Source: Bilabrum cf. latius
Taxonomy: Eukaryota
Length of the DNA stretch: 64,000 nucleotides
Assembly (NCBI GenBank): GCA_965178125.1
Contig: OZ237747.1
Location: 620,001-684,000, forward strand
Direction of reading: 5' to 3'
The position numbers and the translations under genes were made by a program. Below the pieces are notes generated by a model. The model saw nothing but the letters and a program-made list of their open reading frames with translations, was not told the origin of the DNA and did not search any database. How positions within the stretch are numbered: position 1 is the stretch's first letter; the number at the start of each line of letters is the position of its first letter. Shown in pieces: positions 8,206 through 61,059 of the stretch.

Positions 8206-8665
8206 ATATCTCTATGGTGGTGTGTGAAGAGAAACTTCGAGACTGTATCGCACTCTCCACTGTCTTGCTATCCCGAAATCTGGATCCACATCATGATGCC
8301 TCACTATGCCAGTTGCCGATCGGAGTATGTGTTTCGCGGCGATCAAGAGGGAGGTTGCTAAAGAGATTACACCCGTTGATTTTCTATGCCAGATGCTCGG
8401 TCTGTGACTCGATCCACACTTGCTCATTGGCCCCTCAGCATGGCGGCATGCACTCCAGGTGCCCTCCCATCATGCCAGTGGCGGCTTGCAGCGGGGACGC
8501 CACCTGGCCATATCGCACTACACTCTTCCTCCCCAGCAGCGTCTCTCTGCGCGATCGCTGATTGCCAAGCAATGCGCTCCGAAGCTGAATCACTCGAGTT
8601 TCACGGACACTAGCCACGCGATCCAGAAGAAACATAGATCCAGTCCACCATTCCCCGAAGCCCCA

Positions 8666-18600: not shown

Positions 18601-18638
18601 AGCGCGTAAACGCACGACACATGTAAACGTACTCCCAT
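12687..18638 (-). CDS. NRF (nose-resistant-to-fluoxetine) domain / acyltransferase-3-like membrane protein, ~1,983 aa, intronless, 14 in-frame TAG
   Basis: Signal peptide MGVRLHVSCVYALAILVCSLILGGTV*A-ETSS; NRF-like 'DLGNYDRC...YCVL...GVCMPMAC'; 'LF*LAPWTRLP'; C-terminal 'YISAARPVWGLG...GGG...LGRL...VQAP'. ORFs 17376-18401, 16854-17345, 15915-16664, 14808-15896 and 12687-14291 share one frame; ends TGA. Confidence 0.75.
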
Positions 18639-20646: not shown

Positions 20647-20767
20647 GGCTGTGAAGCCAAAAAATGTCCGGGCTCGCCCGGGCAGGCATTGTCGGTTCCG
20701 CAGTTGCCACAAGTGCGCGGCGCCTCGATTTGCGAGCCGTTGGCAGTATTATCGTTCCTTTCGAAAA

Positions 20768-36200: not shown

Positions 36201-39200
36201 ATCTTCACCGCCACGAACTGCACCGTGGTAGATGCGCACATGAAGGTGCGGTGCGAGACCACCGAGGGAGCAGGAGCCAACCTGCAGTGGTTCCTGCTGA
36301 TCGGCAACTAGATTTCCGAATCTCCTAGCACGGATTACGCACCCCCGGAGGTCCATGCAGTTACAGGACTCGGTAGCACGGACGCCTCCACCGAGGGGCA
36401 GCAAGCCGTGGTGCTGGCTGGGAGCCACTTCGGGCCCTTGTCGGAATACCTGGACTTTGTCACGTATGGGCCCACGGGGGGGGAGTACACTGCCAGCGGG
36501 TGCGAGGTGCTCAACCACACGGCCATTCGGTGTGAGACTGTGCCGGGGGTGGGTCGGCAGCTTCTGTGGGTAGTGTCCGTGGAAGACCAGCAGTCGCAGT
36601 TGGAGAACAGCCCCGTCACGACGTATGCAGCCCCTAGCGTGCAGGAGGTGATCCTACCTCGGGAGGGCACTTCTACCAGGGGCGGAGGCACGGTGGCAGT
36701 GCGAGTAATGGATGCGGGCTTCGCGGCCCGGGCTGATGTCGCACTTTTCCTCAATCACCGTGGGGCTCCACGGCCAGAGGACCTCAACGTGAGCTGGGCA
36801 GGAATGATGGCCGGACGGCCGCTGGATTCCACAGCTACTGGGTGGCTTTCGCAGCTTGCAGCAGTTCCCGTGACTAACGGTGGGGGCGCTCTGGAGCAGG
36901 ACGGACTGACGGCCCGGTTCGAATTCGAGCTGCCGCCTGGGTACGGCGAGGATCGTGAGTTGCTAGTGCGGGTGGATGCATCCGACGGCGCGGGGGAGGC
37001 CGTTTACTCAGCTCTCGAGGGGCTCCTGACCTATGATCCGCCGTAGCTTTCCCGCGTCTCGCCGGATCGCAACGCCACGATGGGCAATTCATGGTTGCGT
37101 GTGTTTGTGCAGGGAGAAAACTTGTGCAACGGGAAAGACGGCTGCGGGCAGCTGCTGGTCGCAGGCTAGCCCGTGGGATTCAGGGCAGACCTGGATGCCG
37201 TCGGCGACATGCTGTCCCCCCGAATCATGCAGTGGACCGATGACGAGATCGAGTTCGAGATTGTGGATCCTGCGGGCACTGGAGACACCACGGTCCGCGT
37301 GCGTGTGGGAGACCGTTTGTCCGACGAGGCAGTGTTCAACCGCCCCGTGCCTTTCTTTGACGCCCTGCAGGACCAGCCCGAATGGCCCGCTCTGGATCCC
37401 GCTGGAGGAGAGGAGTTCTATCTGGCCAAGGTGCAGGGGCTCGAGGGAACAGATCCGGATCGCATTTCGATGACCATTGGGGGCAGGCAGTGTGCGGACC
37501 TGACGGTCATCACGCCTGACCCAGACAGCCCCGATGCATCGTGTTCTCTGAGCTTCGCTGGGCCCTGTGAGAAGCGGCTCAAGTGCAAGACACCCCCTGG
37601 AGTGGGCAGCCACAACGAAGTCATCATCAACGTAGGCAGCGGGGACACAGTCGAAGCGGCGTCCAGAGGCAATTGGATGGTGCTATCCTATCGCGCCCCG
37701 GCTGTGAACGCGGTCTACGCTGACTTGCCCCCGCTTGACGCCAGTCCCACCTCCACAACGAATCTCGCCTTCCACCAAATGAGCATTCAGCCGGATGCTG
37801 GTGCAGAGGCGTCGGATGGTATGTCTGACTTCGCTGGCATTCCTACGACTGGTGGAGTGATGGAGCTTCGTGGGTCTGGCTTTGGCACGGAAGCCTACGG
37901 TGTCCTTCAGGCCAGCATCCCTGCCCTGAGTATCGAGCTGCAGCCGGCTTCCCAGCGGACCGAGGACGGGGTACTGAGACTGCAGGTGCCTGCAGGGGTA
38001 GGACACGGCCACGTGGTGCAGGTGCTGGTGGGCAGCTCATACACGGACCTGCAGGCCGCCAACAGCTTCACCATTCGATATGCCAGGCCCAGGGTCCGTG
38101 TCGCTAGCCCCTAGCCCGTGGGCACTGCCGGTGGTGAGGTGCTGGTGCTGACAGGCAGGGACTTCGGGTCCAAGTTGGAGGACCTGGACGTGACCAACGT
38201 GACCATCGGGGACAGGCCATGCGAGATCGTGCGGGCTGCAGGTGGCAGCACCGGCACACCGATGGACTAGGAGCTGCGATGCCTGACCCCTGTGCACAGC
38301 GGGCGGCAATTGTACCTCGAGGTGACGGTGGCCGGGCTCTCGAGCGACTCCAGGGAGAGGGGCGTGAGTGCTGCTGATGTCGCGGTGAGCTACCGGCCGC
38401 CCGTGCTTATGGCCGCCGGGCCTTTAAGCGGGCCCACGTCCGGCCAGACACCCGATGGCAGCCCCTACGTTATGGTGCTGCATGGGGCGGATTTCGGCAA
38501 CGGGGAGCAGGGGCGAGTGATCCTTCGACCATCGGAGCTGCAGTCGCTGGGCAGCGCGGCCACGGAGGACGAGCGGCTTCAGCTAGAGTCGCGGCAAGTG
38601 ATCGTGGCCCACGATAGCCCGCTGATCCAGTCTTGGAACCACACGACCATCGTGATGAATATGCCCGAAGGAGGCGGCAGGGACCTGGATGTGGTGGTGG
38701 ATGTGTCGGGGCAGGAGAGCGCCATCGTGGACGGGCTCCAGTTCACGTACGACCCGCCCGTGGTGTACGGGTGGAGGCGCGCCGTGGACCGCAGCCCCGA
38801 GGAATGCATGCCCAGGGAGAGATGCAAGACATTCGAGGGACAGCAGTACTGCAGGACCATCGCGGCGGGATGCTACCCCACGGCTGGTGGGTATTTCATC
38901 GAGATCGAGGGCGAGTCGTTCGGACGATCGGGAGCAGACGTGCAGCTTGGGCCACATGTATGCAGCCCCGTGGATCCCTTCGAGGACCCCCTTAACGCTT
39001 AGAACCACAACCGGATCGTGTGCGAGGTGCCCCAGGGCTTTGGTGACCAGCTGGCTCTGGTGGTGACGGTGGATGGCCGCAGAAGCGACGACCCCGAGGC
39101 TGTGTCCCTGGCGCAGTCCCGCCTTGGTGCCTTGGTAGAGGCCAAGCTGGCGCGGTTGGCGGCCGAAGACCAGGAGCTGCAGAGGCTGGAACAGGAGGCC

Positions 39201-42200
39201 AGGGATGCACTGGTAGGCGGCCGGCGTCTAGGTGCACCCCTTGAGGCCAATGTGGCATCGCTTGTGTTCGCTGGTCTGGAGATCAAGCCGAGCGCGCAGC
39301 TGGCGCTAGCACGAGTCGGACATCTCACTTCGTCACCGGGCAGGACGAACAGCCGGCGGCTCGAGGTGGCCGGTCTTCCTTTGACAGTGCAGGAGGCCAT
39401 GGATGCGGCCTACGTGTTTCAATATGACCCGCCTTTCGTGGAGGCAGTCGTGTCCAATACTCCCGATGCGAGAGGAGAGGAGGTGCAGATACGAGGCCTG
39501 AACTTTGGGTGGGTCAATAACCCCGTGGAAATTTCGGTCGGGGGCAAAGAGTGCCTGGACGCCGCGTGGCAGAACGACGGTCTGCTGCGGTGCACCAAGC
39601 AACAAGACGTGGTGGGGCCCAAGAACGTGAGTGTCCTGGCCGCCAACCGAACAGAGCCATTTGTGTTCGAGGCATGGGAGGAGCTGCTGGTGAGCGAGTG
39701 CCAGAGGGGCGTGTACGAGGGCATCCGTGGGGAGCTGTGCCTCCACTGCGAGGACGAGCACCCGGGCGCCAACTGCACCAACTCGCATTTGCAGGTATTT
39801 GACCCCATCGTGTCTCTCCCTGGCTGGTGGCGCTTCAACCGCAGCCTGGATGACCCCGAGTGCCACCCGCTCCGCACTACCCCTGTGCGTGCCGTCAACG
39901 CCTCAAGGGGTACCGGCGGTTGCCCCGTGTACAAGCCCTGCGAGCCGGTGGAAGCATGCGTGGGCGAGAACCTGTGCGCCTACGGGTACGAAGGAGACCG
40001 CTGCTCGCAGTGCCTGTACGGAGAATTCCATCGGGTCAACGGCTAGTGCGTCAAGTGTCCCGACCGTCCGTGGCTGCAGTATGTGCTCATCGGAGTGGGT
40101 GCAATGTGCGCTGCTGCCTTTGGGTACCTGCTTCGGTCCAAGGGCATCATCGATGTGAGCATTTTGGCCATTGTGGGGATCGACTATCTCTAGGTGCTGG
40201 CCATCTTTGCTTCCACGCGGGTCGAGTGGCCCGAGCTTCTGACCCAGGTGCTGGCGGTGCTGTCCGCCTTCAACCTCAATATCAACGTACTGTTCGTGCC
40301 TGAGTGTATCGCTCCTGACATCGGCTTCGAGGTGAAGTTCATCGTTACGCTGGCAATGCCCATCCTCGTGGGGGTCGTCTTCATGACCGTGGTACTTGCG
40401 CGGTACTTGTACAAGCTGCTGTGCACGAACTACAAGGCCAAGCCCAAGGGATACCTGTGCTCGGACTCCAATGCCACCATCAGCGCCTTCATCGTGCTGG
40501 CCCGGTTCGCCTACCTCTTCGTGACCATGATGGCGCTCACACCGGCCGCCTGCCTGCAGACCACGCCCCCCGACGGGAGGACGTACATGGACGGCATGGT
40601 GGACCACCCGTGCTGGGAGGCTGGTAGCCTGCAGGTGAAGCTGTTCCCCGTGGGACTGATCGCGTTCGGCATCTTCAGCGTGGGTCTTCCTGCGTGGGTG
40701 TACTACTTCCTGCGCCGCAACGCAGACCAGGTCAAGGAGGATCAGATCTTGAGGGCAGCGGGCGCAGGCAACGACCCGGCGACCAACAACAACCTGGCCT
40801 TCCGCGAGCGCTACTACCAGCTGTACTTTATGATGAAGCCGGGCAAGATCACGTGGCAGCTGGTCATCACGGCCCGCAAGTTCTTTATCGCCTTCGTGTC
40901 TCTGGTGGTGCGCACCTCACCCTCGTACCAGCTGGCCCTGGTGCTACTCGTGCTGTTCGCGGCCTACGTGCTGCACCTCAACCACATGCCGTACATGACC
41001 AGGGCTAATAAGCCTGACGTGGTCAAGGAACACTTGAACAAGGTGCGTGGTGGTGATAAGGCGCACGTCAAGATCCAGGGCAAGATCGACCTAATCGCCA
41101 AGCGCCGGGAGAAGGACAACACCGCCAAGCGGACCTCAGGCACCGGGTACATGGTGGCCCAGGAACAAGCCAGGCGGGAGCGTGCAGCGAACGAGTTCCT
41201 AGCTAGCAACCAGGTGCTCACCACCATCGTGGACTACAACACGGTGGAGGCGGTGCTGCTGGGCAGCGGCGTGCTCGTGTGCCTGAGCGGGCTCATCTTC
41301 GCGTCGGAGCGGTTTGCATCTCCGCAGCTGAGGGAGGTGTACAAGGCCGAGTACGACTCTCTGGCCTTTGCAGTTCTGGCCATCATCTTCCTGTCGCTGA
41401 CCTACTTCATGACCTGCGTGATGCTTGACCTCATGATCTCACTGGCGCCCGATGCAACCCGCCAGTGCCTCAGCGTGTGCATCTCGGACAAGAAGAAGGC
41501 CATCGCTACTGCCAAGGCATCCAAGATCCGGGCACATGATGCAACGGATCCAGAGGGCGGCATGACAGACTCGGAGAAGCTGCTGTAGGCCAGCAAGTCC
41601 AAGCTGAGCAGACGAAACATTGCAAACCCACTCATGCTGCAAAGTGGCCCCCGAGAGGGCGAGACCAAGGCCGAGGCGGCGGCGAGGGCCGCCCGCTCCC
41701 TGGGCTAGGGGGCCATCCAGGACCTGCTGGAGGCGACTTCTCCCCCGAGCAACGAGGGCTGGCCCGCGGTCAGGTCCTACATGCAGAGCCTGATCGTGGC
41801 CAACGAGGAGATGAGCAAGGAAAAGCACGATATGGAACGCAAGCAAGAGCGCGCGTTGGCCCTCCAGGGCTCCAGCGGGGCTTTCATGAATGCACTGCAC
41901 TCCTTCAAGGCCGCCGGAGCTCGATCCCGCGGCGGGTCACTGATGGTATCATCAGCTGGTGGTGCATCACTCCTTAACCCGATGGGGTCTGTTCGTGGAA
42001 AAGGATCTGCTGTTGCCTCCAAGAAGACGTTTGGGGCTCTAAAGGTGGGCGGACGGTTGTCCGTGGAAGGGAGCCAGATGGCAGGTGGTGAACGGGGTGC
42101 CGGTGGCCCTGCGGCTGGGAAGGGATCTTAGGCGAGCAGTCGCAGACTACTGAAGAGGAAGAGCAGCCGACGCCTGACGTCCTTCGGGGAGGGACTCCGA

Positions 42201-42284
42201 GCCAAGGCGGGCGGCAGCGCTGAGCCTGTGTCGGATGGAACTTCGGTGGGTGGCGCCGGGAAGGCGTTCGAGCAGGATGCCTGA
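27256..42284 (+). CDS. Giant (~4,800 aa) cell-surface protein: signal peptide, DCGG Cys motif, TSP-C/lectin-like and sushi-like domains, multiple cadherin repeats, multiple IPT/TIG repeats, Cys-rich region, multi-TM C-terminus
   Basis: Exons 27256-27304, 27439-27480, 27802-29110 and 29246-42284 (GT-AG introns). Splicing gives SCTNNRKDTSEYGVDCGGSC. Cadherin motifs LDFE, DxNExP and ATDPD; IPT motifs 'GxNFGP' and 'YxPP'. All main plus-strand ORFs from 27762 to 42131 share one frame, joined by 26 TAG; ends TGA 42282-42284. Confidence 0.88.
33984..34075 (+). repeat. Coding minisatellite, ~4.5 x 21 bp (DSGDQEQ), inside the cadherin region
   Basis: GACAGYGGAGAYCAASAGCAG units in frame. Confidence 0.85.
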
Positions 42285-42958
42285 TCAACGGCGTGCGCAA
42301 GTGCCCGAAAGTGGGTGTGGGAGATGTTTTTGAGTGAAACTTTTTGTGGTGACCTTATGGTCATTTGACTACTGAGCCGTTGGATACATGTGCGGCCAGT
42401 GATTTGCTTTGCGAGGCAGGGGAGCTGGGCATTGAGCCAACCCAAAGGACTACATTCGACAGCAGTCTGTCAGCCTACCGAGGCCCAACTGCTGTTGTTG
42501 TCCTATCTGGCGTTTGCTCCCCTCCAAGTTGTAGAAAACTTTTTGCTGCTTAGTTTCGTAGTAGGGTCGTGGCGCCTCGGACCACGGCGCACACCTGCAC
42601 ATTTACTAGCATGATAAGCGGGTCGTCTCGCCGCCTCCACCTGTAGCACCATCACAGCCGCCGTGTTGTCCGGCTAAAGCGGCACGCTCTTCGCGCCCAT
42701 ACCACTCGTTGGTCCATTCAGGTTCCATGGAGGCCTTTCTGGGGGAAAGGTTTTTGTCCCACAATTTCACTTGCGGTCGTGTCTGTGCACAGCTCGCGGT
42801 GCCGAGAGTCCACTAGATTACTAGTTATTCCCGGCAGCTGTGCATTGTGCAGCGGCAGGTCAGGAGTGGCTTTCTGGTGCGGCATAAGGAGTGGGGGCGG
42901 CCCATCTCCGGTCGCGACCATCGGAGGATCGGGAGCCGAGAACAACAGGGTTGCATCA

Positions 42959-43475
42959 CGAGCGGCAGCTGCAGACACGAGGTACCAAGCAAACACGGCC
43001 AAGGGGATGGCGGCGGCTGCCGCTCGCAGGCGGGCGCCGGCCAGCAAGCTCAAGCCGGAGAGTGCCGTCGCCCCCATTGCTAAAGAGGTAGAGCAAGAAG
43101 ACGACCTGGAGGAAGTGGAGTGCGACGAGGAGCTCGAGGAGCTGGCGGCACTGGGTGGGGGCGATGCCGAGCACGAAGGGGGGTCTGGGCGAGATGGGCT
43201 CGAGGTAGCCAGGCCGATGCTGCCGCTGGACGATGAAGAGGAGGGGGGCGATGATGAGGACCAGCAGTGCAATGGTGATGCTGATGGTGGTGATGGTACG
43301 TTTGGCGGAAGGCCGAGTCGGTTGCGAGTCAGAGACGTGAATGCCGGTGCCCACGGTAGCGCGGGACGAAAGGGGGGTGATTCCAGCGGGCAGGCCGCTG
43401 TCGTCGCGGAGGAGGCCACAGCCGTGCTCGGTGACGACGATGGACCCGGAGAGTGCCAGCAGCAGTAAGAGTTGA
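42959..43475 (+). pseudogene. Duplicated 3' tail of the kinesin gene
   Basis: Near-identical direct copy of 25939-26458, including GECQQQ-TAA; no motor-domain sequence upstream. Confidence 0.85.
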
Positions 43476-43635
43476 CGTGCATATATTTCTGATAATTGGA
43501 GGTTAAACTCGTAGGGTCTCGACCCACCGCTCAGATGTTTATCCACCCCCCACCCACTGGCAGTGTTGCAACCGCCAGCATCCGGATCGAATCACCCGGA
43601 TCAGAGTTTTCCACACTACAATAGGCGCAAGTCCA

Positions 43636-46317: not shown

Positions 46318-46702
46318 TATTTATGCAGCCGCGGTGCCGAGAGTCTAAATCACGGCAGCTGCGTCATGCAGCGGCAAGTCTGACGGAGCCTGATTCTTGA
46401 GGTGCTAAGAGGAGTGGTATTCTGGTGCGGCATGAGGAGTGGGGGTGGTCCAGCTCCGGTCGTAACCATCGGAGAATCGGGATCCGAGAACAACCGGGTT
46501 TGCATCATGATTGCGGCGACTCCAAGGAGCCTCGTCAGGTGGCTTGCAGTCAGTCTGGAAGGGGTGCGTGAGAGCTGGCGGCGGGTCAGCACTGCGAGGA
46601 AGGACGATGTCGCCATCCATGGGATGAGACACGCTTTCGGATGATTGTTTGGAGAGGCACAAACGAATAGAATCAGATTTAGCATGTTTCAACATAGCGC
46701 CA

Positions 46703-47760
46703 TCACAGCCCCGTCGTGCCTCCCATGGCGGCAGCATGCTCCTCGTCTTCCTCCTGCAGCAGCACGCAGCCCTCTCCTGTAACACCCGCCGGCTCCACGA
46801 TCATCCTACACGCCCGCTGGGCGCATCCCGGATGCTGTAGCAGCCGCAGCATACGCATGGGGCCGTCTGGCCTGCCGAGCGGGCCAGCCTGCGTGGGCAT
46901 CCCGGGACTGGGGACGGCCACAGGCCCCTACACGATGACCTGTCCACTGGGTTCGGCACCCCCTGTAGCTGCTGCTGCTGTTGCTGCTGCTGCCGTATCC
47001 TTAGTTCTTGGAGTGAGGCAGCCCTCATCTGCCTCTTTCAGCCAAGGCAGTCCCCCACAGGGACCAAGGCAGGGGTCGTCCACCAGCCAGGGAGCTGGGC
47101 ATACCGAGTCCGAGTGCTCTGGAGCTGCGCCTGCGCTTGCGCTTGCGCTTGCGCCTGTGCTCGCCAATAGTTCCGTTGAGCTGGAAGTGGCAGATGACGT
47201 TGTTGTCTCCGCTCCACTTCTATCCTTGGCACTGTCCCCCTGCTCGTTCTGGTCCTTGTCCTATTGATTGTCCTATGGTTTGGCATCAGCAGCTCCACCC
47301 GCAGGTAGCACCCCCAGCACCTCCACCATCGCACCGCTTGGGTGCCAGAGAACACCCACGCCATCGAGTGCCTCTGCCTCCGCAGCCGCCACCTGTTGTA
47401 GCTTAGAGGCGATGGCCAGCGCGGCCGCATCCGCCCCGCCTGTGGAGTCAGCCAGCGTGAGGAGCAGCCTGACGGTGGGGCTGCAGCACCAGGCCAGGCC
47501 AAGGGCGGCCTTGCTCAGCGCCGCGGAACCTCCCGGCGCTGCGCTCCCCGCGACCTCCTTTGCGACCACCGCGGTGGCCTGGTTGGTGACGAGGACGGGC
47601 AGGTTGTGCTCGGCGGCCAGCGCGAGGAGCTCCCTGGACAGGAGGGCCAGGGCGTTGGCGCGGCGCCAGGCGGGGGCCGTGGTCGTATCTCCTCGCGTCA
47701 GGGACGCGACGCTGTACACGTATAGAAATATCTAGGCCATTTGAACCATGAGGCCCAGGC
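46703..47760 (-). pseudogene. C-terminal half of a RAD51 paralogue (RAD51B/XRCC3-like), apparently 5'-truncated
   Basis: 'LAAEHNLPVLVTNQ', 'KAALGLAW...TVRLLL' and 'RMLRLLQHPG...IVEPAGV' in one frame across three TAG; ends TGA 46703. The Walker B position reads VYSVA instead of VDSVA, and no Walker A is visible before a TGA at ~47920. Confidence 0.6.
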
Positions 47761-47937
47761 GGCGGGTGCGGGCCCCGGCGGACCGACACAGCCCTGCGCT
47801 GTGGGTGAAGCACCATGTCGCTGCGCGGCCATGGGCTGTCACGCGGGCCATGCCGTACTGTCCTTGCCCTTTTGCGTCCTTCAGACACCGCACTCGTTTA
47901 TTGGGGGGACATTGTAAAATTCATCCTGTCCACTTCT

Positions 47938-50900
47938 GCACCTATGGAGTTATCGATGCCGGTAGATGCTCTCCGTCGATAGCCTCGGTGTGGCCGCTGA
48001 TGCGCTGTCTTGCTATCGTCACCAGAGTGCGAGATCTCTGTGGGTCACCACGTCTCTTCGAGGTCAACGGCCGCTGGTGTCCAGGTTCGGCTCGCTGTTT
48101 GAGGCCTGCCAGTGGCAGCTGCGCTTGCACTGCATTTCAGCTTGCACGGTATTTCAGGCCCCCAATCAGCCTGGTGGGGGCGTGGAACAGCCCGTCAGGC
48201 ACCTCGGTATCTTCTCGCCCCGGTGCACTCACTGTCAGCTCGATGCCGTCAGATCGCGCCTCCACCGTGAGGACTCATTCATGAGCCATGGCGCCCAGCA
48301 CAATCAGCGGCACATCGACCAGCTCATGTCCACCAGCGCGCCGCAGCCCTCTCACGCAGCCCTGCAGCAGGGGTCCCTGGGCGCGAGTCCCGGCTCGCAG
48401 GGGCACTCTGAGGTGGCTTGGCGGGCGGCCCGGCGCTGGAGGAGGGGCAGGCTAGCGGCGCTGGCTCATGTGGCACACCGGAACGATTCGTCTGGGATCG
48501 TGGATGAAGAAGACGACGAGGGCGAGGACGAGGAGGCGCTGGAGGGCGGCAGGGCAGGTGGGGCGGGCCTCGGCTCGGTCGGCAAGTCCGATCATGGGAG
48601 AGAGAACAGCCGAGAGCTGTCTGGGGAAGCGGCCGCTACAAACGGACGGGATTCAGCTGCGCCAGTCACTCGGTTGGCGGACGACCTGGTGGATGCTGAG
48701 TCAGGGCACGGAGGCCTGTCACGCGGCAGGGCTGGCACTGCAGATGCAGGCGCGCCCAGGCGGATTGCTCGTCGCAGGGAGGGCGCCGCAGGGGCCAGAG
48801 CAGATGGGAGCGATGCCGGTGGAGGAGGGGCGGGGAGTGGGTATGGCAGCAGCGGCACAGGCCCCGGGCCCGGTGGGAGCGGCGCGCTGCGAGCACCACG
48901 GAGGCGAAGGAGCAGGCACGCGAGCCAGCCGGGGGGCTACCTGAGCAGCAGTGGGGAGGAGCTCAGCGACACTGGCGAGGAAGTGGGGGATGCAGTGAAC
49001 ATGGGGCTGGGGGGCTGGAGGGGGGGAGACGGGTACGTGTCGGCAAGCGGCGGGAGCAGCGCGGGCGAAGGGGATGCAGGCACGGGTGCGCATGGTCGGA
49101 TACCTGGGATCGGATCCGATACTGAGTGATGGGGCTTCGGGGAATGGTGGACTGGATCTATGTTTCTTCTGGATCGCGTGGCTAGTGTCCGTGAAACTCG
49201 AGTGATTCAGCTTCGGAGCGCATTGCTTGGCAATCAGCGATCGAGCAGAGGGATGTTGCTGGGGAGGAAGAGGGCAGTATGATATGGCCAGGTGGCTTCC
49301 GCTGCATGCCACTGGCATGATGGGAGGGCACCTGGAGTGCAAATGCCGCCATGCTGAGGGGCCAAGGACCAGGGGGTGGATCGAGTCACAGACTGAGCAT
49401 CTGACATAGAAAATCAACGGGTGTAATCTCTTTAGCAACCTCCCCCCCTTTCCCACTGGATCGCCGCGAAACACACGCTCCGATCGGCAACTGGCATAGT
49501 GAGGCATCTTGATGTGGATCCAAATTTCGGGATAGTCTAGCAAGACAGTGGAGAGTGCGATACAGTCTCGAAGTTTCTCTTCACACACCACCATAGAGAT
49601 ACATGGACGCCATCACCGATGCAGTGAAATGTGGGGATCACCGCAAGGTATGGGAACTCCTCGACTAGCAACCGAGCCTTGCTTCTCAAAGCTAGGTTGA
49701 CGGAAATACTTTGCTCCATGTTGCGGGTAAGAGTACTCGCACAACCCCGATGCGTTAGAAGCCTTGTGAACTGCTTGCAAGCTTTCCTTTCTGTTGGGCT
49801 CAGCAAACCATATGCAGCTGTAAGCGGGAATGCTTCGATGGTAGAGTGTTTGTTGAAGGCTGGCGTGGATATCAACAAGAGGAACAGGAATCAAGAGACT
49901 CCTGTGTACTGCTTTGCGAGGAATGGTCATGCTGACTGCTTAGATCAGGTGGTTGGCGCTGGTGCTGACGTGAATGCAGCAAAAGCAGGTGGATCCGTGC
50001 CGCTGCATATTGCAGTCAAGAACGGGCATGTGGACTGCGCGCGTGTGTTGGTGGAGGCCGGGGCGACAGTGGATGCAATGACTGCGAAGGGAGCATCGCC
50101 TCTGTACATCGCCTGTCAGGAAGGTCAGTTGGAGTGCGCGCGTGTGTTGATCGGGGCTGGCTGCAATGTGAACGCTGCCATCGAGGGCGGGTATGTGCCG
50201 CTGCATATTGCAGTCAAGAACGGGCATGTGGACTGCGTGCGTGTGCTGGCGGAGGCCGGGGCGACAGTGGATGCGAAGACTATGAAGGGAGCATCGCCAC
50301 TGTATCTGGCCTGCCAGCACGGTCAGTTGGAGTGCGCGCGTGTGTTGATCGGGGCTGGCGGCAATGTGAATGCTGCCATGGAGGGCGGGTATGTGCCTCT
50401 ATATGCAGCAGGCCAGAAAGGGCATGTGGACTGCGTGCGTGTGCTTGTGGAGGCCGGCGCGACAGTGGATGCGAGGAGTATGAGGGGAGCATCGCCTTTG
50501 TACATCGCATGTCAGCACGGTCAGATGGAGTGCGCGCGTGTGTTGATCGGGGCTGGCTGCAATGTGAACGCTGCCATGAAGGGCGGGTATGTGCCGCTGC
50601 ATATTGCAGTCAAGAACGGGCATGTGGACTGCGTGCGTGTGTTGGTGGAGGCCGGGGCGACAGTAGATGCAATGACTTCGAAGGGAGCATCGCCACTGTA
50701 CAAGTCCTGTGAGCACGGTCAGATGGCATGCGTGCGTGTGTTGATCGGGGCTGGCTGTAATGTGAACGCTGCCATGAAGGGCGGGTATGTGCCGCTGCAT
50801 ATTGCAGTCAAGAACGGGCATGTGGACTGCGTGCGTGTGTTGGTGGAGGCCGGAGCGACAGTGGATGCGAGGACTGCGAAGGGAGCATCGCCTCTGTATC

Positions 50901-51758
50901 TGGCATGTCAGCACGGTCAGATGGCATGCGCGCGAGTGTTGATAGGGGCTGGCTGCAATGTGAACGCTGCCATGGAGGATGGGTATGTGCCGCTGCATGC
51001 AGCAGGCCAGAAAGGGCATGCGGACTGCGTGCGTGTGCTTGTGTAGGCCGGCGCGACAGTGGATGCGAGGATTGCGGACGGAGCATCGCCTCTGTATCTG
51101 GCATGTCAGCACGGTCAGATGGCATGCGCGCGAGTGTTGGTAGAGGCGGGGTCGAATGTCAACGCCCAAGGCCAAGGCGGCAACACACCGCTTCATGCTG
51201 CCGTTGAGTGTGGACGACTCGAATGCGCTAGAGTGCTGCTTCATGCAGGCGCAAGTAAAGAGATCAAGAACGACGCAGGTAAAGTGCCTGCACGGCTGCT
51301 GCCAACACGCCGATTAATTATTGTTGAACAGGTCAGTGCCACAGTCCGCCTGGTAGAGCGCTTCAGCCTCAGAGCGCATTAGCTGGCGGCATGGAGGCAG
51401 GCAGCCATCGCGCAGAGAGATGCTGCTCTCGTGTTTAATGCTGCAGCCACTGGCAGGCCACTAGAGCTGGGCAAGCGGCTGGGGCTGGGCAAGCTGGCGG
51501 GCGGGCTGGAGAGGAAGGGGCCAGTCTCTGGTGGCAAGCTGGTGTCTCCGCTGCATGCAGCCATGCTGGGTCAACACAGGGAGTGTGTGAAGGTGCTGCA
51601 GGAGTATGGGGCTTTGCTGGGGGACGAGGAGCAGGCCTGGATCGAGCGGCTTGTTGCGGCATAGACGTAGGTGAAATCGTATCAGGATCGAGTGCGGGAG
51701 CTGGAGGCTCGGCTGGCGGCGTTGGGGCATGCACCTGGCTGATGCAAGACTACCAGAT
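47938..51758 (+). repeat. Inverted dispersed third copy of the ~4 kb ankyrin module
   Basis: Reverse complement of ~9860 down through the acyltransferase 3' fragment (48325-49129), spacer and ankyrin gene. The 3' flank matches 10001-10020. Confidence 0.9.
49603..51742 (+). CDS. Ankyrin-repeat protein with C-terminal coiled coil, copy C
   Basis: ATG 49603; TAG at 49666 and 49693 within a canonical first ankyrin repeat; intron 49727-49817; TAG at 51044, 51380, 51662 and 51668; ends LGHAPG-TGA. Confidence 0.88.
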
Positions 51759-51861
51759 GGTGTGGTGTGACTTCTTCGTGGCGCCGCACTCGTCATCCTG
51801 TGGCAAACCATTCCAATACAACGGCCGTCGCTATTACGATAGGTATAGCAGTTATCGTAGC

Positions 51862-53919
51862 ATGGGGAAAATACGAGGATCTTTATATGCTGCGACGAAG
51901 CCCGCTTCGAATCTGCTTCAGCTGGTTCATGGCATGCTTTTCGACTGGTAGTACTTCGGATGGACGATGGCAGCTTTGCTGGCATTTGAAGCGATTGTTT
52001 CAGCGGTTATCATTTTGAAGGTACCATGTAAGATAATTTGTATTATTCGTGATGGGTTCTCTGTTGCTTCGTACACTGCAGCGGGAACAGTTTTGGATTG
52101 TACGCTCTTTGAACCTGCGCAGATACCGAGATCGACTGGAAGGCCTACATGCAAGAAGTAGAAGGCGTATTTGTGCAAGTAAGTCGAACTAGTTGCAGAA
52201 TACTTTGAACGACCTACATCATGCTACATTATGTCTGCTCTGACCGCGATCCACAATTCACTGCAGGGCGACTTCGACTACTTGAACCTGCGAGGGGATA
52301 CCGGGCCGCTCGTGTATCCAGGTTTCTTTGTCTGGTTTTATGGATTGCTTTGGAAAATAACTGACAACGGGACCAACATAGCTCGGGCGCAGTGGATCTT
52401 CTGGGGGATTTACCTGGTGTTCCAGTTCGTGGTGCTGTCCGTGTACAAGAAGACGCGCCCGCACGCGCCATGGCTAGCCGTCATTCTGTGCCTCAGCAAG
52501 CGCATGCACTCTATATTTGTGCTTCGCCTCTTCAACGACCCAGTGGCCATGCTGTTCGCGCACGGCGCTGTATGGTGCTTCTCCAGCCACCGCTGGCTGG
52601 TTGGCTCGCTGCTGTACTCGCTAGGGGTCGGCATGAAAATGAACGTCCTGCTGTTCGCCCCGGCGCTGCTCCTCCTGTTCCTGCGTAACACGGGCATCTG
52701 GGGAACTTTCTTGAACCTCTCTGTGTGTGCGGGGGTGCAGATCATCGTAGGTGCGCCCTTTTTGGCGACCTACCCGGTGAGCTACCTCAAGAAAGCGTTC
52801 GAGCTCTCGAGGGTTTTTTTCTACAAGTGGACCGTAAACTTCAGGTTCCTGCCCGAAAACATCTTTGTTTCCAAGCAGCTGGCACTCCTACTGCTTGCGC
52901 TGCACCTGGGCGTGCTGGCGGTGGTGATTGCTTCGTGGACCTGGAGGCTCGTGAGGGCGAGCGAGCACCTAGCGGTGGCTGCAACCGACGATGATTCGGA
53001 ATCAAAGAAGAGGTCGTTATCCGGCGGGGGGCGATCCGCCTTATCTCTCGAGCTGGCCGTCGGCAAGGTGTCGCCGAGATTGCCATCGGGACCCACCTCT
53101 GCGCTCCTCCCCCAAGCAGGTGGCAGCTCGAGCTCGAGCTCGTGGTTCGGTTGGATGCTGGCGCCCTCTCCCGCGCTGAGCGCGCACTCATTCGACGCAT
53201 TGGCAGCTGCTTCTGACCGCGGTGGGGCTGCCCCATTGGCGGTCGCCCTGCGTGCATCAGAAGCTGACCTGAAGTCAATCGAGAAGGGCCTGTGCAAGGA
53301 CTCGCCGCTGTTCATCGCTGCATTGCTGTACGCCAGCAACCTCGTTGGCGTGGCCTTCGCGCGCACGCTGCACTACCAGTTCTACTCATGGTACGTGTCT
53401 AGCGTGCCCCTGCTGCTCGGTGCATCGGGCGCACCGGCATACGTAGTTGTGGTCGCCTCCGGTTTGCTCGAACTGGCTTTCCTGACGTTCCCCTCGACGA
53501 GCGAGAGCTCCATTGCCTTGCACCTGGGACACCTGCTCGTGCTGGGCGCAGTGCTGAGCGCCGATGCAGGTTCCTTTGCCCTGCCATGGTCATGGGGAGT
53601 GCCTAGACGATTGGCGGGCGACAGGGCAAGGGCTGGTCAAGATGAATCTGGCTCGAGCGGTGGAGGTGTGGGTGTGTGGCTCCTTGCTTGCATTGGGTGG
53701 ATCGACGGCGTGCTGCGAGGGTTGGGTGCGGGTACTGGTGCGGCATGGGAGGCCGGGGAGGGGCAGGAGGGGTGGTTGCTGCGGGTGTCGGGCAAGGAAC
53801 ATGGCGGTGAGGAAGGAGGTGCGCCTGAGGTAGAGGGAGCCAAAGCGGCCTCCAAGGGCCGGGGTCCAAGCCGGTCAGGTGGGAGGGGCAGACAGGGGAA
53901 GGCTGGCAGCAGGGGGTGA
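51862..53919 (+). CDS. ALG3: Dol-P-Man:Man5GlcNAc2-PP-Dol alpha-1,3-mannosyltransferase
   Basis: Introns 52028-52122 and 52179-52266 give KVPYTEIDWKAYMQEV...LRGDTGPLVYP; SKRMHSIFVLRLFND, KWTVNFRF and ARTLHYQFYSWY are present. One TAG (51949) in the N-terminus; ends TGA. Confidence 0.92.
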
Positions 53920-54058
53920 AAGATACGCATCCACACGGATGGTTGGTTTCGAGTTGCTGGACAATCGTTTCGTTTGTAAGCTCCAGTTTACACTCAAGAA
54001 TCACGTGCAACCCTATATTTAGGCAGGGTCAAGGCCTCGGTATTATATATCGGCAGGG

Positions 54059-55159
54059 TCAAGGCCTCATGGTAGCCGCCACCGCTAGTGCTGCAGATAC
54101 ACCCGCTGCCAATCCGAGCGTTCTGGCGAGGCTTGACTCGCGCTAACTCGCCCCGCTTCCGAACAGGACGAACGGGTGCGGCGACGCGGCGGCCTCCTCA
54201 GTTCCCTTGCTGCCCCCCTCCTGCTCCTCCTGCTCCTCTTCTCCTCCCGCTTCCTCTTGCTCCTCCTCCTCGGGGCCCCCTTCGGCATTGTGCCCGGTGG
54301 AGCCCACCTGGCTCTCCTGCTCGCTGCCCTACTCAGCGGCAATGGCACCCGCCGAAAGACTGGCCTATGCCTTGGACGTCCCCTTCCTATCGGCGGACTA
54401 CTCTTTGCTCGCTTCACTCCCGGGAGCGTCGCTGGCCTCCTCCTTGGTATCATCGTTCTTGGATTCGTCATTCTTCTTGCCGTCCTTTGACGCCTAATCT
54501 TCCGCATCTAACGCCTGACTACCACCGATGGCTGTGCCTGCAGCCTTCATCGTCTCGTAGCTGTCCATGACTTTGCCTCCGACAACTGCAGCAGCCGAAC
54601 TGGATGCCTGGTCGCTCTCAGCAGCTTGAGGGTCAACAACCCCCGCGGGTTTGGACGCAGCATCCTGCTATGCTTGTGCACGAACCCGTTTCGCTTCAGA
54701 CTCTTCTACTACAAGCGTTCCACTGCCGTCGCCGTCGCCATTCGCGCTCGGTCGAAGCTAGCCGTGCACAACTGCCGCTTTGCCATCGCCATGAGCCCCA
54801 GTCACGATGACGTCCACATCCTGAGGTTTTTTGCTAGGTGATACGTCCGATTGGCCCGAGCCTGCAATCGCATCTGCAAGTGTGGCGTGGGTGTCGGCCT
54901 TCTTGCTCTCTGAAGTACCAGTAGAACTGTCCAGCGCTGCCTCGGCCTTGTCGAGGCGGTCCGATAGGGATTTTACCAAATTATACTTCGCATCTGAAAG
55001 AACTCCTGCTACCTCGGGCTTCTTGGAGCCATCCAGTGCAGTTCCCGCTTCTATGGATGGCCTTAGGGCGGCAGACCCCGATTTGTGCGAGACTCTCGCA
55101 TGAAGTGCGGCGTCACCCAGGCCCAAAATAGAAGCCATGACAAGTATATTGAATAGCAT
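54059..55159 (-). CDS. Secreted acidic low-complexity protein with hydrophobic C-terminus (possible GPI anchor), ~366 aa
   Basis: Signal peptide MLFNILVMASILGLGDA; frame continues through 7 TAG to ...RTLGLAAGVSAALAVAATMRP-TGA. Confidence 0.65.
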
Positions 55160-55321
55160 ATCAGAAACTCCGAAAGAGTGTAGATCGATTGATGGATGGG
55201 CGCTCTACACGGTCAGAGTTGTATTAAACCTCTGGCTCTATGGTATTAGCACTGCACAATTGATTTAATCGGATTCCGTTCGCCCGGAGTTGATATTTCG
55301 AAACCGATCCTCGGCGACCGA

Positions 55322-58300
55322 ATGAGCAGCTCAACACTTCGTAGCAGAATGAACAACTTGCAGGACTCCAAGCTGCAAGTAGCGGCACCCAGCAGCCAAT
55401 CAATCGAGCACGAAGAGTTCGGTCCGAACCGGCACGCCCCAGAGCAGTACAGGGTCTCCCTATGCGACACCCGAGTTGCCGTCTCGAGCCGGGTGGCCCA
55501 GGCAGCAGTGGCATACCCATGCGTGAGAGTAGGATTCCGTGGGCGCAAACTGAACAAAATAGACTGTTCATGCATGCCTCGCGCATGGCACGCTTCGCCA
55601 AGCCGCTTGGAATGGCTTGCAGCACCCCTTCTGCTCCCATCGCCGCTGCGGGTTTGCCTGCGGCTATGCTGCCGTGCTGCCCATGCAGGCCCTGCGCACG
55701 CCCCACTGCACGCTCCCGCGTCTACTCGCCCCGTCCCCTTTAAGTTGCAGTGCATAGTATTATCCGTGCTGGGATTCTTCATCTTCTGCATGGTGGTCCT
55801 GGTGGCCACAGGACAGGCAGCGTTCTCCCAGGTCTCCGACTACGACCTCATGCTGAGAGACAAAGGTGAGCAGCATTCTGAAAATCGAGTTGGGAAGCGC
55901 GTTCATTGTACTGTTTATGCTCACATGCCGCTGCATGTACTCGTGACTGTCGCTTGATCTGCTTGGATCTGACATGCGATGCGCGTGCACACGGCCAGCA
56001 CTCACTGGCACCGTTTGGGCTCGGCAACCAGTGCCGAGACCTCTTTTCCGCACCTACTGCCCGTTCGCCCGTTCTTTACAAGGAAACCAACACCGCAGCT
56101 GATGTGCAACAGATGCAGGCGGTTGACCGAGCGATCGCCCAGCTTACTGGCGGCGACGGAGGAGCAGTGCTGGAACAGCCCCAGCAAACTGCGGACCCCG
56201 TCTCACTGGACGTGCTGCTGCTTGCCAAGGGCAGCGGCAGCGACGTGCTGCTCGATGGTAACAAGCGCAGGGAAATTGCAGCGGCGATTGCATCTTTGAT
56301 CCTGGATGCAGACTTTCCCAGAACCTGCCACGTTCTCAACTCCACCACTGGAGTATGCTCCGCGCCTCTGTCCCCCTTCATGCTCGACTACGACGCAAGG
56401 ACCCTACCAGATGATATCGTAGCCTTAGACTAGGATCCGCAAGTCGCGTGGGCCGGCGGAACTTCCCCTGTGCCAAGGGTACGTCTGGCATCCAGCCCGG
56501 TGCCAGGGAGCAGCCTGCTCGGCCCCGACACGAACGCAAGCACAGCAAGGCAGATCCTGTTCCGGTACGCCAACCCCGAGGAGGCTGCCTCCAGGGGCAT
56601 GATCCTCGAGGCAGAGGTGCCGCTCTACTCGTCCCTCCGCACTCTCTTCTTCGACCGTGATTTTGGCCGGGTGCTGGAGGAGGGCGAGGGCGAGCTAGAG
56701 GAGCAGCGGGCCAGGGGAGAGGACTACGGCGTGTCGCTGAAATCGCGCTTTCTGCGGCTGAGGATGGCGCAGGGTATGCCGCTCGAAGGGTTTGCGAACG
56801 AGGAGGACCGCCCCAGGGAGCAGCAGCTCGAATGGGGCGAGCTGATGGGGGAGACGGCAGACGAGACAAACATGGATCGCTTCAAGCAGGACCCAGCTCC
56901 AGAGGGAGTCGAGCTGGTCCTCTTCAGCGGAGCGATCATGGAGCGCGAGTTTGAGCGCCGCGCCATCGAGGACATGTATTGGGCGGGCGCCTCCATGCTC
57001 TTCGTGTTCCTGTACACGTGGTTCCATACGGGGTCCATCGTGCTGGCAGCTGCCGGTCTCTTCATCATCTTCAGCGCAATGCCCATCGGGATCTTTATCT
57101 ACAGGCTGGTGTTCCAGATCCCGTACGTCTAGACGCTTCACGGCATGAGCATCTTCATCCTGCTGGGCCTCTCGGCAGATGCGGTCTTCCTGGTGCAGGA
57201 CTCGTACCAGCAGGCCCCTGATGTCACTCCCGCAAAGATCTACCAGATTCTCTTCCGCATGGACCAGGAGGCGTGGGCAACCGGTGGTGCATCACCCGAG
57301 CAAGCCCACGGCAGCAACAGAGCTAGTATCCCGTCGAGGCAGGGCAGCCAAGGCGCCAAACGAGCAGACGATGACAGCTTTACCGAACGGGACGAGATAG
57401 CAGACGCCCGTCAATCGCGCGCAGAAGAAGAGGCCCTCGTTGCTCGCATTGCATACACGTGGAGCCGGGCCTCTACCAGCCTTACCGTCACCACGCTGAC
57501 CACCATCGTGGCCTTCCTCGCCACGGCCGGCTCGAGGATCATGCCGGTGTCAACCTTCGGGATCTTCGCTGCCACGATCGTGTTCGCCAACTACTGCCTG
57601 GCGCTGTCTCTATACCCCGCTGCCATCGTGCTATGGGAGCAAAACATGCGCCCGTGCGAGGCAGCCTGCGCTCGCGTGCTGTGCGGTTGCTGCTGCGCTG
57701 GCGCAAGCTCACAAGAGGCAGCAGAGCTGCAAACGTCGGGCTCCGTCGACAGCATCCCCAGCGCTAATGCTAGCAGCACAGTGGTCTCCCAGTCGCCCAT
57801 GCAGTCTTCCAGCGGTATCACGACTGCAAGCAGCAGGGAACAGCAGAAGGAGAGACAGGGCCAGGAGCCCCAATCGCTGCCGATGCCGGGCTAGCAGGCA
57901 GGGCTGTTTCTTCTGAGCACGAGTGAGAAAGATGGGCATGCGGAGCCCAAAGTAGAGCGGCCCATCGAAATCTTCTTCCGGGACTACTGGAGCGAGTGGA
58001 TCTATGTGGCTCGGTTCCCCATCCTCGCCGCGTTTGCCGTGCTGCTGGGCGTGTTTGCCTATTTGGCCACGCAGCTGGAACCGCTGACCCAGCAGGAGCA
58101 GTGGTTCCCCGAGAGCTTTTATGCCGGTGCAGCGCTGGCTTGGCTCGACGATGAGTTCCAAGTCACCGAGCGAGACAGCACGGTGGAAGCTGACATCACC
58201 TGGGGAGTCGCTGGCATCAACCGAGACGGGACCAGCAGGTACAAGCCCGCCAACCCAGGGCGCGCCGAGTGGGACGAGTCATTCGACATGTCTTCCCCAG

Positions 58301-59623
58301 CGGCACAGCAGGCCATTTTGGACACGTGCTTCCTCGCCCCCGCTGCTCTGGGCCGCGTGCCCAAGAACGAGGAGCTGCCATTATACAAGGCCAACGTGTC
58401 GTGCTTCATGCAGGACTACGCCGACTGGCTCAGGGACGAGCAGGGGATCAGCTTCCCATTCGTGGCATCGGACACGAGTGGTGCAGCAACTGCAGAGCAA
58501 TAGCGCGATCAGTTCATGAGTTCACTGCAGACATTCACCACGTCGTCGACTCGGGGCAAACAGCTTCGAGCTACGCATCGCATCGGCTTCAACGCGGATG
58601 GGCAGCTGCGCATGGCCCAGGTTGCAATTAGCCTCAACCTGTTACACTTTGAGCCGTACGACATCAACAAGCCCATTCGAGACAGGATGCAGGCATTTGT
58701 TGACGCGCGGAATGCCGTGTCACCACCTGGTGTTGATGGGGCAATCCAAACGGCTGGAGTGGCGTGGGGCTGGATGCATACCGAGCGGGAGCTGCTGCGC
58801 ACCGCCCTCCAAGGCATTGGCATATCGCTAGCCGTAGCCACGTTGGTGCTGGTCTTTTCCACAACCAACGTGATCGTCGGGGGACTGGCGGCACTGTCCA
58901 TGGGTGGGATCCTGGTGGTGGTGCTGGGCACATTCAGCGCCCTCGGTTGGCAGATGGGGCTTACCGAGAGCATCGGGTCCATCATCCTGCTGGGCTTCAG
59001 CGTGGACTACACGGTGCACAGCGCGGTGCACTTCGTCACCTCGAACAAGCCCAAGGCTCACCTCCGCGTCAAGGACTCACTGAGGGACATGGGCGTGTCT
59101 ATCGTGGCTGGCGCAATCACCACGGGTGGCGCAGGCCTGTTCTTGTGGGGTGGAATCATCATCTTCTTCACCAAAGTGAGTCGCCTGTGTGTTTTTGCAT
59201 GTCTGGGAACCGCTTGATCCACCGAGAGCCTCTCGTTCACGTCGAGCGGTAGCAGCTACCCTCACGTGTTGATTGATGCTGTTGCGCACGTCTTGACCCG
59301 CCCTTCCTTGCATTTCCCGCTCCTCGCAGTTTGCCACCACTCTCACGGTCGCAATAGCCGTGTCTTTGCTGTTCTCGCTTGCCTTCCTACCGGCTGCACT
59401 CTGCGTCCTGGGTCCGGACGGTGACACTGGCAGTATATTGCCGGCGATGCAGGCACTCGGGCTGGGATTCTTGTGTGGGCTGCACAGCGAAATTGACAGC
59501 GACAAGGGTCGACGTGGCCGTAGAAGCGGAGCAGTCGCTGTGGTCGGAGCCGAAGCACAGAATGACGCGCCCGTGCAGGGACAGTCGCCCCGCACGAGTA
59601 CTACTGCTGCAGCGGCTGTGTGA
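55322..59623 (+). CDS. Dispatched/Patched (RND, sterol-sensing domain) family membrane protein
   Basis: 'IFILLGLSADAVFL', 'TTLTTIVAFLA...IMPVSTFGIF' and 'GFSVDYTVH...GAITT'. TAG at 56431, 57130, 57892 and 58501; intron 59176-59329; ends TGA. The 5' exon structure (~55500-56080) is unresolved. Confidence 0.85.
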
Positions 59624-59790
59624 CGGGTACCTGCAGGACAGGGTACGCGGCTTGACCAGGGCTAGTGGACGATGCGTTGAACCCGGCAATTCAAACGTTC
59701 GTGTGACAAATAAAAAGCAATGTCCGTCTCGTGTGTCTCACATGCAATATCGAGTCGTACAGGGTACATGCAGCGCGGTGTACCTCACAA

Positions 59791-61059
59791 TCACAACCGC
59801 TTTTGCGTGCCTGTCTCATGCACCCTGCCCCTTCCTTCGCTCTCCTCTGACGTCGTCTAGTCCACCCAGTCGTCCTGGTGCACGCCGCAATCAAATAGGC
59901 TCTCGTCCTCGTCCCCTACCCTTGGAAGATGAATGAAAGCGTCAGTGCCGTAGCCTTCCATCGATACGATGTTCAAGTCGCCTCCGAAATATCGAGCGTA
60001 CAGCCTGGACAGAGGCAGGCCGTACCCAAGGCCGGCCATGGGCGTGGAGGTGCTGAAGTCTCCCCCCTCCATCACCCGGTCCAGCACACTGCCCTCCTTC
60101 TCGTCTTGTGCCCAGGTCGTGTAGAAGTACGAAAACATGCGAGAGACCCCCTTCCTGTGGATGCCCCCGCCCTCGTCGGCCACCTTGATCACGATGTCTT
60201 CGTTCTCTGGCCCCGCTGCCACGATGATTCTCACGGGAGGCATAGTGGAGAAGTCCTCTCCGTGCCTCTCCCACACTGCCCGCAGCGAGTTCTTGACCAG
60301 CTCGAACACGATGAGCCTCAGGTGCGAGGGGATGTAGCTGAACCGGAACTCTTCGTCGCCAATGATTTGCACCTCTGGCACGTCCCCGAACTCTCTCTCA
60401 GCCATGTACTGGGCGTCTTCTGCCGCCATCCTGCACACTTGGACTGGCGATAGCTTCGTGTTAATAATGCCGACGTAGCCCTCCATCACGTCGTGCAGGG
60501 CCAGGTGCTGCTCGATCAGGGTACGAATGCCTATCCGTGCGGAGAAGAATGCATCTAGAAACTTGTGAACCCTCTTTTCCATGTGCTGAGGCATGCCGTC
60601 CGACCGGGGGTCCGCGTATCCCTGCTCCCTCCTAAACTGCTAGATCCCAGCTGCCATGGTGACCAGGGTGGAATTGTGGCGCTCGTATATCGACTGTATC
60701 AGCTCCTTGACCTTAGCTTCGTCTTCTATGGATACGGGGGCATCACACTCCCTCAATTCCTTGAAGCTGGAGCGGTACCAAGCAGCAACCTGATGCACGC
60801 TCTGCGTTTCGCTGAGCCCGAACGGGAGGCTCTCTAGCTCAACTATTCGATGTGCGAATCGAATCGGCAGCTCCTTGTGTAAAAACTGAGCGGCACGCAA
60901 CAAAGTCAAACCTCGCTTCTCTTCCACATGTTTCGGGTCCGTTGGCAAAGGCTGCGCGCCGTCTGCCACCCCTGTCTGTCCGAACACCTCTAGCATTCGC
61001 AAGGATATGCTGGATTGCTTGACTTTGCTTGCCTGCCAAATATCTCGATCTAAATCGTC
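59791..61059 (-). CDS. Mitochondrial pyruvate dehydrogenase kinase / BCKD kinase family protein (upstream exons unresolved, probably up to ~61400)
   Basis: AQFLHKELPIRFAHRI, RIGIRTLIEQH, FELVKNSLRA, KVADEGGG, AGLGYGLPLSRLYARYFGG and EGYGTDA. TAG at 60640 (AGI*QF) and 59857; first TGA at 59791; acceptor CTGCAG at 61060-61065. Confidence 0.9.

Follow-up and report, generated by a model that had tools for sequence, protein, structure and literature searches.

UAG as a probable glutamine codon, with UAA and UGA as stops, in a GC-rich, intron-poor stretch of eukaryotic nuclear DNA

Genes and in-frame TAG codons of the window

The window analysed here, that is, the whole 64-kilobase (kb) stretch of contig OZ237747.1 under study (64,000 nucleotides), contains long protein-coding genes whose reading frames are crossed by the codon TAG (UAG in mRNA), and the meaning of this codon is the subject of the present analysis. 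TAG acts as a sense codon in the window, TAA and TGA act as stops, and the amino acid specified by UAG is probably glutamine (Gln, Q). The guanine plus cytosine (G+C) content of the window is 61%. Its long open reading frames (ORFs) correspond to real eukaryotic genes by their Pfam matches, and the kinesin gene has one GT-AG intron; the DNA is therefore nuclear and comes from an intron-poor eukaryote. The genes on which the argument draws are the following (lengths in amino acids, aa).

2..4849, minus strand: 1616-aa ORF without a Pfam family, open at its 3' end; 18 in-frame TAG
6030..8090, minus strand: ankyrin paralogue A (Pfam Ank); 3 TAG
10017..12074, minus strand: ankyrin paralogue B; 2 TAG
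12687..18638, minus strand: gene for a 1983-aa membrane protein; 14 in-frame TAG, with 18558-18560 after a signal-peptide-like N-terminus
19106..19615, plus strand: part of a Spc25-like gene (Pfam Spindle_Spc25, E=3.3e-12); 2 TAG; TAA end
20768..26451, plus strand: kinesin gene (Pfam Kinesin, 1.1e-86); 4 TAG in 1873 codons; TAA stop
29124..42284, plus strand: giant gene for a 4386-aa protein with cadherin, IPT/TIG and C-terminal membrane parts; 23 in-frame TAG; TGA end
49718..51742, plus strand: ankyrin paralogue C; 4 TAG, including 51662-51664 and 51668-51670
52231..53919, plus strand: ALG3 gene (Pfam ALG3, 2.3e-110); no TAG; TGA end
56113..59217, plus strand: Dispatched/Patched-like gene (DISP1 in PDB, E=2.5e-29); 4 in-frame TAG; TGA end
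59791..60996, minus strand: PDK/BCKDK-type kinase gene (BCDHK_Adom3, E=1.4e-41, spanning the first TAG); TGA end

The kinesin gene starts with an ATG at 20768; exon 1 covers 20768-20981 and exon 2 runs to the TAA stop. The intron, placed by reading the sequence, would occupy 20982-21070 (89 nucleotides, GT-AG) with the 5' site GGTTAGT, cut after the first G, and the exon junction yields the motor motif YAF-D-RVFG. The kinesin TAG at 22003-22005 sits in a motor-domain loop. In the Spc25-like gene one TAG lies at 19157-19159 and the second in the RWD domain, where the Spindle_Spc25 match spans it. The giant gene matches Pfam Cadherin (9.5e-50) and TIG (4.3e-26), and its best named match is a protein of Cafeteria roenbergensis at 31% identity, an affinity confined to this one gene. 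The two in-frame TAGs of the PDK gene stand at 60640-60642 (residue 119) and 59857-59859, and the named matches of its product, from plants, a haptophyte and oomycetes, share 45-52% identity with it.

The first-pass annotation of this DNA, which proposed glutamine as the meaning of UAG, had cited eight individual TAG codons. All eight are present and seven are in frame, among them 36309 (residue 2396 of the giant protein), 40191 (residue 3690 of the same protein) and 18558 (residue 27 of the 1983-aa protein). The eighth, at 49666, drops out as evidence: it lies upstream of the conserved ATG of ankyrin C at 49718 and in another frame (the difference is 52), in intergenic DNA after an ORF that ends at 49129. 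Two of the arguments built on these codons carry no weight. The TAGs in glutamine-rich runs are uninformative, and the completion of a V-x-A signal-peptidase site at 18558 (TVxA, where x is the TAG) says nothing about the residue, because position -2 of such a site is unconstrained.

Codon usage and termination

Under standard stops the longest ORF of the window has 646 aa. Reading through TAG produces ORFs of 4390, 2012, 1880, 1620 and 1112 aa, and making TAA a sense codon leaves ORF lengths almost unaltered. Codons were counted in 16 gene models with 16,131 codons, 15 of the models being complete. TAG occurs 94 times in frame against 146 and 76 times in the other two frames, and since it is about as common in frame as off frame, it is not avoided in coding sequence. 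The other two codons behave differently: TAA is found twice in frame, both times terminal, versus 38 and 51 times off frame, and TGA 13 times in frame, always terminal, versus 291 and 290. Internal TAA and internal TGA are thus both absent from the 16,131 codons. Had TAA the meaning of TAG, about 27 in-frame TAA would be expected from the CAA/CAG ratio of 0.29, and none is seen internally. From the counts by frame and the shortfall of TAA it follows that UAG is reassigned and that UAA and UGA terminate. Stop use in the 15 complete models is TGA 13 and TAA 2, the latter in the kinesin and Spc25-like genes.

In-frame TAG is found in 15 of the 16 models and makes up 12.6% of the presumed glutamine codons. 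Pfam domains that cross TAGs include BCDHK_Adom3, Kinesin, Cadherin, Ank and Spindle_Spc25. The density of TAG is uneven along the window, from 0 in the 563 codons of ALG3 and 4 in the 1873 of kinesin to 18 in the 1616 of the ORF of no Pfam family; an acidic low-complexity ORF at 54059-55159 has 7 TAG in 367 codons.

Alignment with close relatives

The close relatives are database protein fragments that were called with standard stops, and the set of 80-98% identity was used for the tally of residues facing TAG. Identity to the window is 99% for P0001, 98% for P0148, 92% for P0147 and 80-90% for P0002, P0121-P0124, P0140, P0141, P0143 and P0150. Secondary low-identity BLAST matches between different repeats of the giant protein were left out, as was P0149 (49% identical), whose residues opposite three TAGs of a poorly conserved N-terminal stretch are A, H and S. 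At the 19 window TAG sites that are covered, the relatives have glutamine 12 times, glutamate (Glu, E) three times, and lysine, arginine, serine and threonine once each. At the 15 well-aligned sites, defined by at least 15 identical residues among 20 flanking ones, the count is Q 11, E 1, R 1, S 1 and K 1. Leucine, tryptophan and tyrosine face none of the 19.

Ordinary codons in the same alignments (3862 columns) provide the control. CAG faces Q in 98 of 123 cases and CAA in 23 of 31; GAG faces E in 142 of 166 and GAA in 45 of 55, with Q in only 4 and 2 cases, respectively. An empirical substitution table built on these 3862 columns gives the 19 observations a log-likelihood (lnL) of -31.5 if TAG is Gln, against -64.8 for Glu, -69.4 for Lys, -73.2 for Arg and -90.8 for Trp. 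The overall proposal of glutamine for UAG is thereby supported.

The giant gene contributes nine TAG sites covered by P0121-P0124 (81-90% identical). Glutamine stands at 30330, 32595, 33858, 33927 and 40191, and the remaining sites show E (34365 and 35199), R (40044) and S (32688). The TAG at 40191-40193, in the transmembrane motif IDYLxVL, faces Q in P0122 (81% identical) with all 20 flanking residues identical; Pfam assigns no family to this region of the giant gene. In the 1616-aa ORF, P0140, P0141 and P0143 (83-89%) have Q at 3200, 2051 and 1613, K at 2447 and E at 3548. The 1983-aa gene shows Q at 17376, 15915 and 16854 in P0147, P0148 and P0150 (85%). The PDK TAG at 60640 faces Q in both P0001 and P0002 (80%). 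P0001 and P0148, the two nearly identical sequences that extend over a TAG of the window, show Q there.

The ends of the fragments are informative as well. In the 1616-aa ORF three of them fall exactly on TAGs of the window (residues 306, 833 and 1208), and over all nine ends considered the facing window codons are CAG three times, TAG three times, and CAA, GAG and GAA once each. P0001 terminates exactly at the second PDK TAG, where P0002 continues with similar sequence. Because the fragments were called with standard stops and end at window TAGs, the glutamines that they do contain are real CAA or CAG codons, and the relatives share both the code and some TAG positions with the window. A sister lineage, about 85% identical in protein, thus carries TAG at some of the same positions and shares the code. 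A search of genome contigs with the PDK protein and with a three-sequence alignment as queries returned no related locus.

These alignments bear on two further explanations. In the first, UAG would be ambiguous, read mostly as Gln and elsewhere as a terminator or a second amino acid, as in context-dependent codes. The second PDK TAG invites this reading: no more than 21 codons separate it from the TGA, and the tail in which it lies is weakly conserved and absent from 112 of 120 homologues. Across the full 19 sites, moreover, TAG keeps Q a little less often (63%) than CAG does (80%). At the well-aligned sites, however, retention at TAG (11 of 15) equals that of ordinary Gln codons, P0002 continues similarly past the second PDK TAG, TAG is as common in frame as off frame, and each of the 15 complete models stops at TGA or TAA; no model needs TAG as a stop. 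Ambiguity is therefore very unlikely. In the second explanation UAG would not be decoded at all, the TAGs being lesions of pseudogenes, parts of unrecognised introns, or targets of U-to-C editing to CAG in mRNA. Only DNA was seen, editing would likewise give Gln, and at least one real GT-AG intron exists, in kinesin. Decay is nevertheless incompatible with 94 TAGs in 15 of 16 models beside zero internal TAA and TGA; TAGs lie within Pfam domains and between fully conserved flanks (20/20), they are kept between lineages about 85% identical, and nuclear mRNAs are not known to undergo U-to-C editing to such an extent. This explanation is barely credible.

Alignment with distant homologues and internal repeats

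The first PDK TAG falls in a column (MAAGIxQF) that is conserved across distant homologues. Its composition in 120 homologues is Q 55, H 32, A 13, Y 8 and F 4, with V 2, K 2, S 2, R 1 and N 1 as minor residues; E, L and W are absent. The assignment of glutamine to this site, originally made from a family consensus, is supported by these counts, with Q in 55 and E in 0 of 120. A tally over TAG columns of other conserved proteins, also proposed by the first-pass annotation, yields less, since Spc25 gives N and Dispatched gives P and a poorly aligned stretch. Glutamine, then, is what faces TAG both among the close relatives and in the single conserved column.

Repeats of the giant protein offer a further comparison. 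The TAG at 36309-36311 (plus strand) belongs to the final strand of an IPT repeat (IGNxIS) and is covered by none of the close relatives; the same position is occupied by Q in 4-5 of the 12 other repeats and by R (twice), A, D, G, S and L in the remainder. On our reading of this alignment Q would be the modal residue, yet not a conserved one; the shared xxQxS strand once put forward as support thus stands as a tendency and fails as a conserved motif.

Duplicated ankyrin genes and the glutamate alternative

The three ankyrin genes belong to a segmental duplication of about 3.7 kb, present in three copies with 91-97% DNA identity: two in tandem at 5803-13495 (minus strand) and one inverted at 47937-51646. 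Each unit joins the final ~290 codons of the gene for the 1983-aa membrane protein to the ankyrin gene that follows, and the extra copies of that tail (8666-10030 and 47966-49129) are ORFs that lack the remainder of the membrane protein gene. One TAG, in RAHxLAAW, is common to all three paralogues (residue 556 in A, 555 in B and 555 in C), at a position that none of the relatives spans. The TAG at 51668 of ankyrin C (residue 651) faces CAA in copies A and B, an alignment that the first-pass annotation had reported and that is reproduced here.

The principal competing amino acid is glutamate, the meaning of UAR (UAA and UAG) in peritrich ciliates. Three ankyrin TAGs face GAG, namely residue 113 of A, 51662 of C and residue 443 of C, two of them at the conserved LVEAGA position, and E also appears at 3 of the 19 sites aligned with relatives and as a Glu codon at two of the nine fragment ends. 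The paralogues are weakly constrained, however, with ratios of nonsynonymous to synonymous substitution rates (dN/dS) of 0.94 for A-B and 0.55 for both A-C and B-C, so that one-base neighbours of TAG should turn up under any meaning of the codon, and no codon of the window models is more frequent than GAG (49 per 1000). Weak constraint and GAG abundance together imply that the ankyrin paralogues say little about the meaning of TAG, GAG and TAG being one mutation apart under weak selection. True Glu codons, moreover, keep E in the relatives where TAG shows Q at 12 of 19 sites; Glu is 33 lnL units worse than Gln, and E is missing from the 120 sequences of the PDK column. The naming of Glu as the main alternative to Gln was thus founded on real TAG/GAG pairings, but these come from near-neutral paralogues, and the column statistics favour Gln. 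The three E among the 19 sites would fit ordinary Q/E exchange together with a one-step origin of TAG from GAG. Glutamate is accordingly a most unlikely meaning.

The remaining ankyrin comparison, in which the TAG at residue 256 of B faces AAG in A and AGG in C, touches the possibility that UAG specifies another one-base neighbour (Lys, Leu, Ser, Trp or Tyr). K and S also occur once each among the 19 sites, and the cited passages report UAG decoded as Leu in other eukaryotes (PMC5304391, PMC11687900). The absence of L, W and Y from all 19 sites and the lnL values of -69.4 for Lys and -90.8 for Trp, against -31.5 for Gln, leave these residues next to no probability, and glutamine is retained.

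Further observations on the window

Genes run leftward up to about 20.7 kb and mostly rightward beyond. The point of strand switch lies at about 20650-20770, with a flip in the sign of GC skew nearby; there, a DUF1168/PRKRIP1-like gene (minus strand, ATG 20646) and the kinesin gene (plus strand, ATG 20768) stand head to head with about 120 nucleotides between them. DUF1168, as identified by Pfam, is the family that the first-pass annotation had called PRKRIP1.

The last ~170 codons of kinesin, including the TAA stop, are duplicated (25939-26463 versus 42959-43480, 94.5% identity), and the duplicate lies just upstream of a gene for an 893-aa protein with a CarboxypepD_reg domain. An ORF of about 500 codons at 27615-29126 terminates with a TGA (29112-29114). 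The giant gene shares its frame, and the ATG of that gene, at 29124, comes only 9 nucleotides past the TGA and opens a signal-peptide-like stretch. The 407-aa ATG-started part of this ORF has no Pfam match at E<=0.01, and none of the intron positions tried keeps the frame. The two represent either tightly packed separate genes or one gene with an in-frame TGA. At the right edge, an ORF with 5 TAG at 62654-64000 (minus strand) is open at the window end and shows a weak DDE_3 transposase match (E=0.0028) that falls below the Pfam cut-off.

Interpretation and proposed decoding

Most probably the window belongs to a eukaryote with few introns and a high GC content (61%), in whose nuclear code UAG means glutamine and UAA and UGA remain terminators, UGA being the usual one; a probability of about 0.88 is assigned to this interpretation, which rests on sequence comparison. 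Decoding of UAG would be carried out, on established knowledge of such systems, by a glutamine transfer RNA (tRNA) with the anticodon CUA. This anticodon pairs with UAG and not with UAA, which would explain why UAA has remained a stop, and a release factor eRF1 with weakened recognition of UAG would no longer compete efficiently at that codon. A CUA tRNA that reads UAG but not UAA is also the explanation offered for other UAG-only codes in the cited passages of PMC11687900.

Several observations pull in the other direction. Relatives show Glu at 3 of 19 aligned sites, and Glu codons face 2 of the 9 fragment ends. Comparison of the ankyrin paralogues pairs TAG with GAG in three places but with a Gln codon in just one. 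The codons of the relatives and the code used by the gene caller are deduced from where the fragments start and stop, and a fragment end may in some cases be the end of a contig rather than a stop codon. The tally covers 19 of the 94 in-frame TAGs, and a single TAG occupies a column that distant homologues conserve. The second Spc25 TAG faces N in vertebrate SPC25 chains of the PDB, among the alignments listed, which is neutral, and the Dispatched-like TAGs face P and a poorly aligned stretch in the solved DISP1 structures. On the side of the decoding apparatus, ARAGORN finds no tRNA gene in the 64-kb window, and the eRF1 gene does not lie within it.

The practical consequence concerns annotation. 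Gene prediction under the standard code fragments the genes of this genome, as the database fragments show; with TAG read as Q, proteins as long as 4386 aa are recovered.

Comparison with known genetic codes

The features found in the window are UAG in frame, a match of UAG to Gln, and termination at UAA and UGA, a combination that we take to correspond to a code like NCBI table 15. The neighbouring code, in which both UAA and UAG specify Gln (NCBI table 6), is described in the cited passages for many ciliates, hexamitin diplomonads and some ulvophyte green algae (PMC5304391, PMC2984419). It shares the glutamine meaning of UAG, and it is rejected for the window by the absence of internal TAA where about 27 are expected and by the two genes that end in TAA. 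In peritrich ciliates UAR is read as Glu, according to the relevant part of PMC11687900. The Glu signal of the ankyrin paralogues recalls that code, which is rejected in turn by E at 3 of 19 sites in relatives, E at 0 of 120 in the PDK column, and the failure of TAA to act as sense. Codes in which UAG means Leu, noted in sections of the cited papers for Rhizaria sp. exLh and uncultivated phyllopharyngeans (PMC5304391, PMC11687900), likewise decouple UAG from UAA; their amino acid differs, Leu facing none of the 19 sites here.

Two closer counterparts exist. The phyllopharyngean ciliates Hartmannula sinica and Trochilia petrani translate UAG as Gln and prefer UAA as stop, as excerpted from PMC11687900. 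They resemble the window in having given a Gln meaning to UAG only and in the wide use of that codon; they differ in the preferred stop, and the window, at 61% GC with long intron-poor genes, is without ciliate sign. In the fornicate Iotanema spirale, as the cited portion of PMC5304391 states, UAG is read as Gln and UAA is kept as a stop, indeed as the primary one. The likeness is close, in that only UAG is reassigned, to Gln, UAA and UGA terminate, and the organism is a non-ciliate eukaryote. UAA is the primary stop there, whereas the window uses TGA in 13 and TAA in 2 of 15 models; Iotanema spirale is also an anaerobe, whereas the window encodes a PDK of mitochondrial type.

A code with UAG alone reassigned to Gln is therefore a rare variant that is already known, and the lineage that carries it here may be new. 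Searches of the open-access full-text literature found no report of nuclear UAG reassignment in stramenopiles or bicosoecids. Tentatively, and at slightly less than even odds, the window and its sister lineage (about 85% identical, with shared TAG positions) could represent an undescribed group of GC-rich, intron-poor eukaryotes outside ciliates and fornicates, whose only named affinity is the weak match to the stramenopile Cafeteria, and in which UAG and UAA were decoupled independently, with UAG read as Gln and UGA as the main terminator. Codes that give UAG and UAA different meanings are rare, and the cited passages use them to argue that the two are mechanistically separable (PMC5304391, PMC11687900). 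Beside Iotanema spirale and the two phyllopharyngeans, in which UAA is the favoured stop, one more case, GC-rich and terminating mainly at UGA, would be an independent piece of evidence on the origin of such codes.

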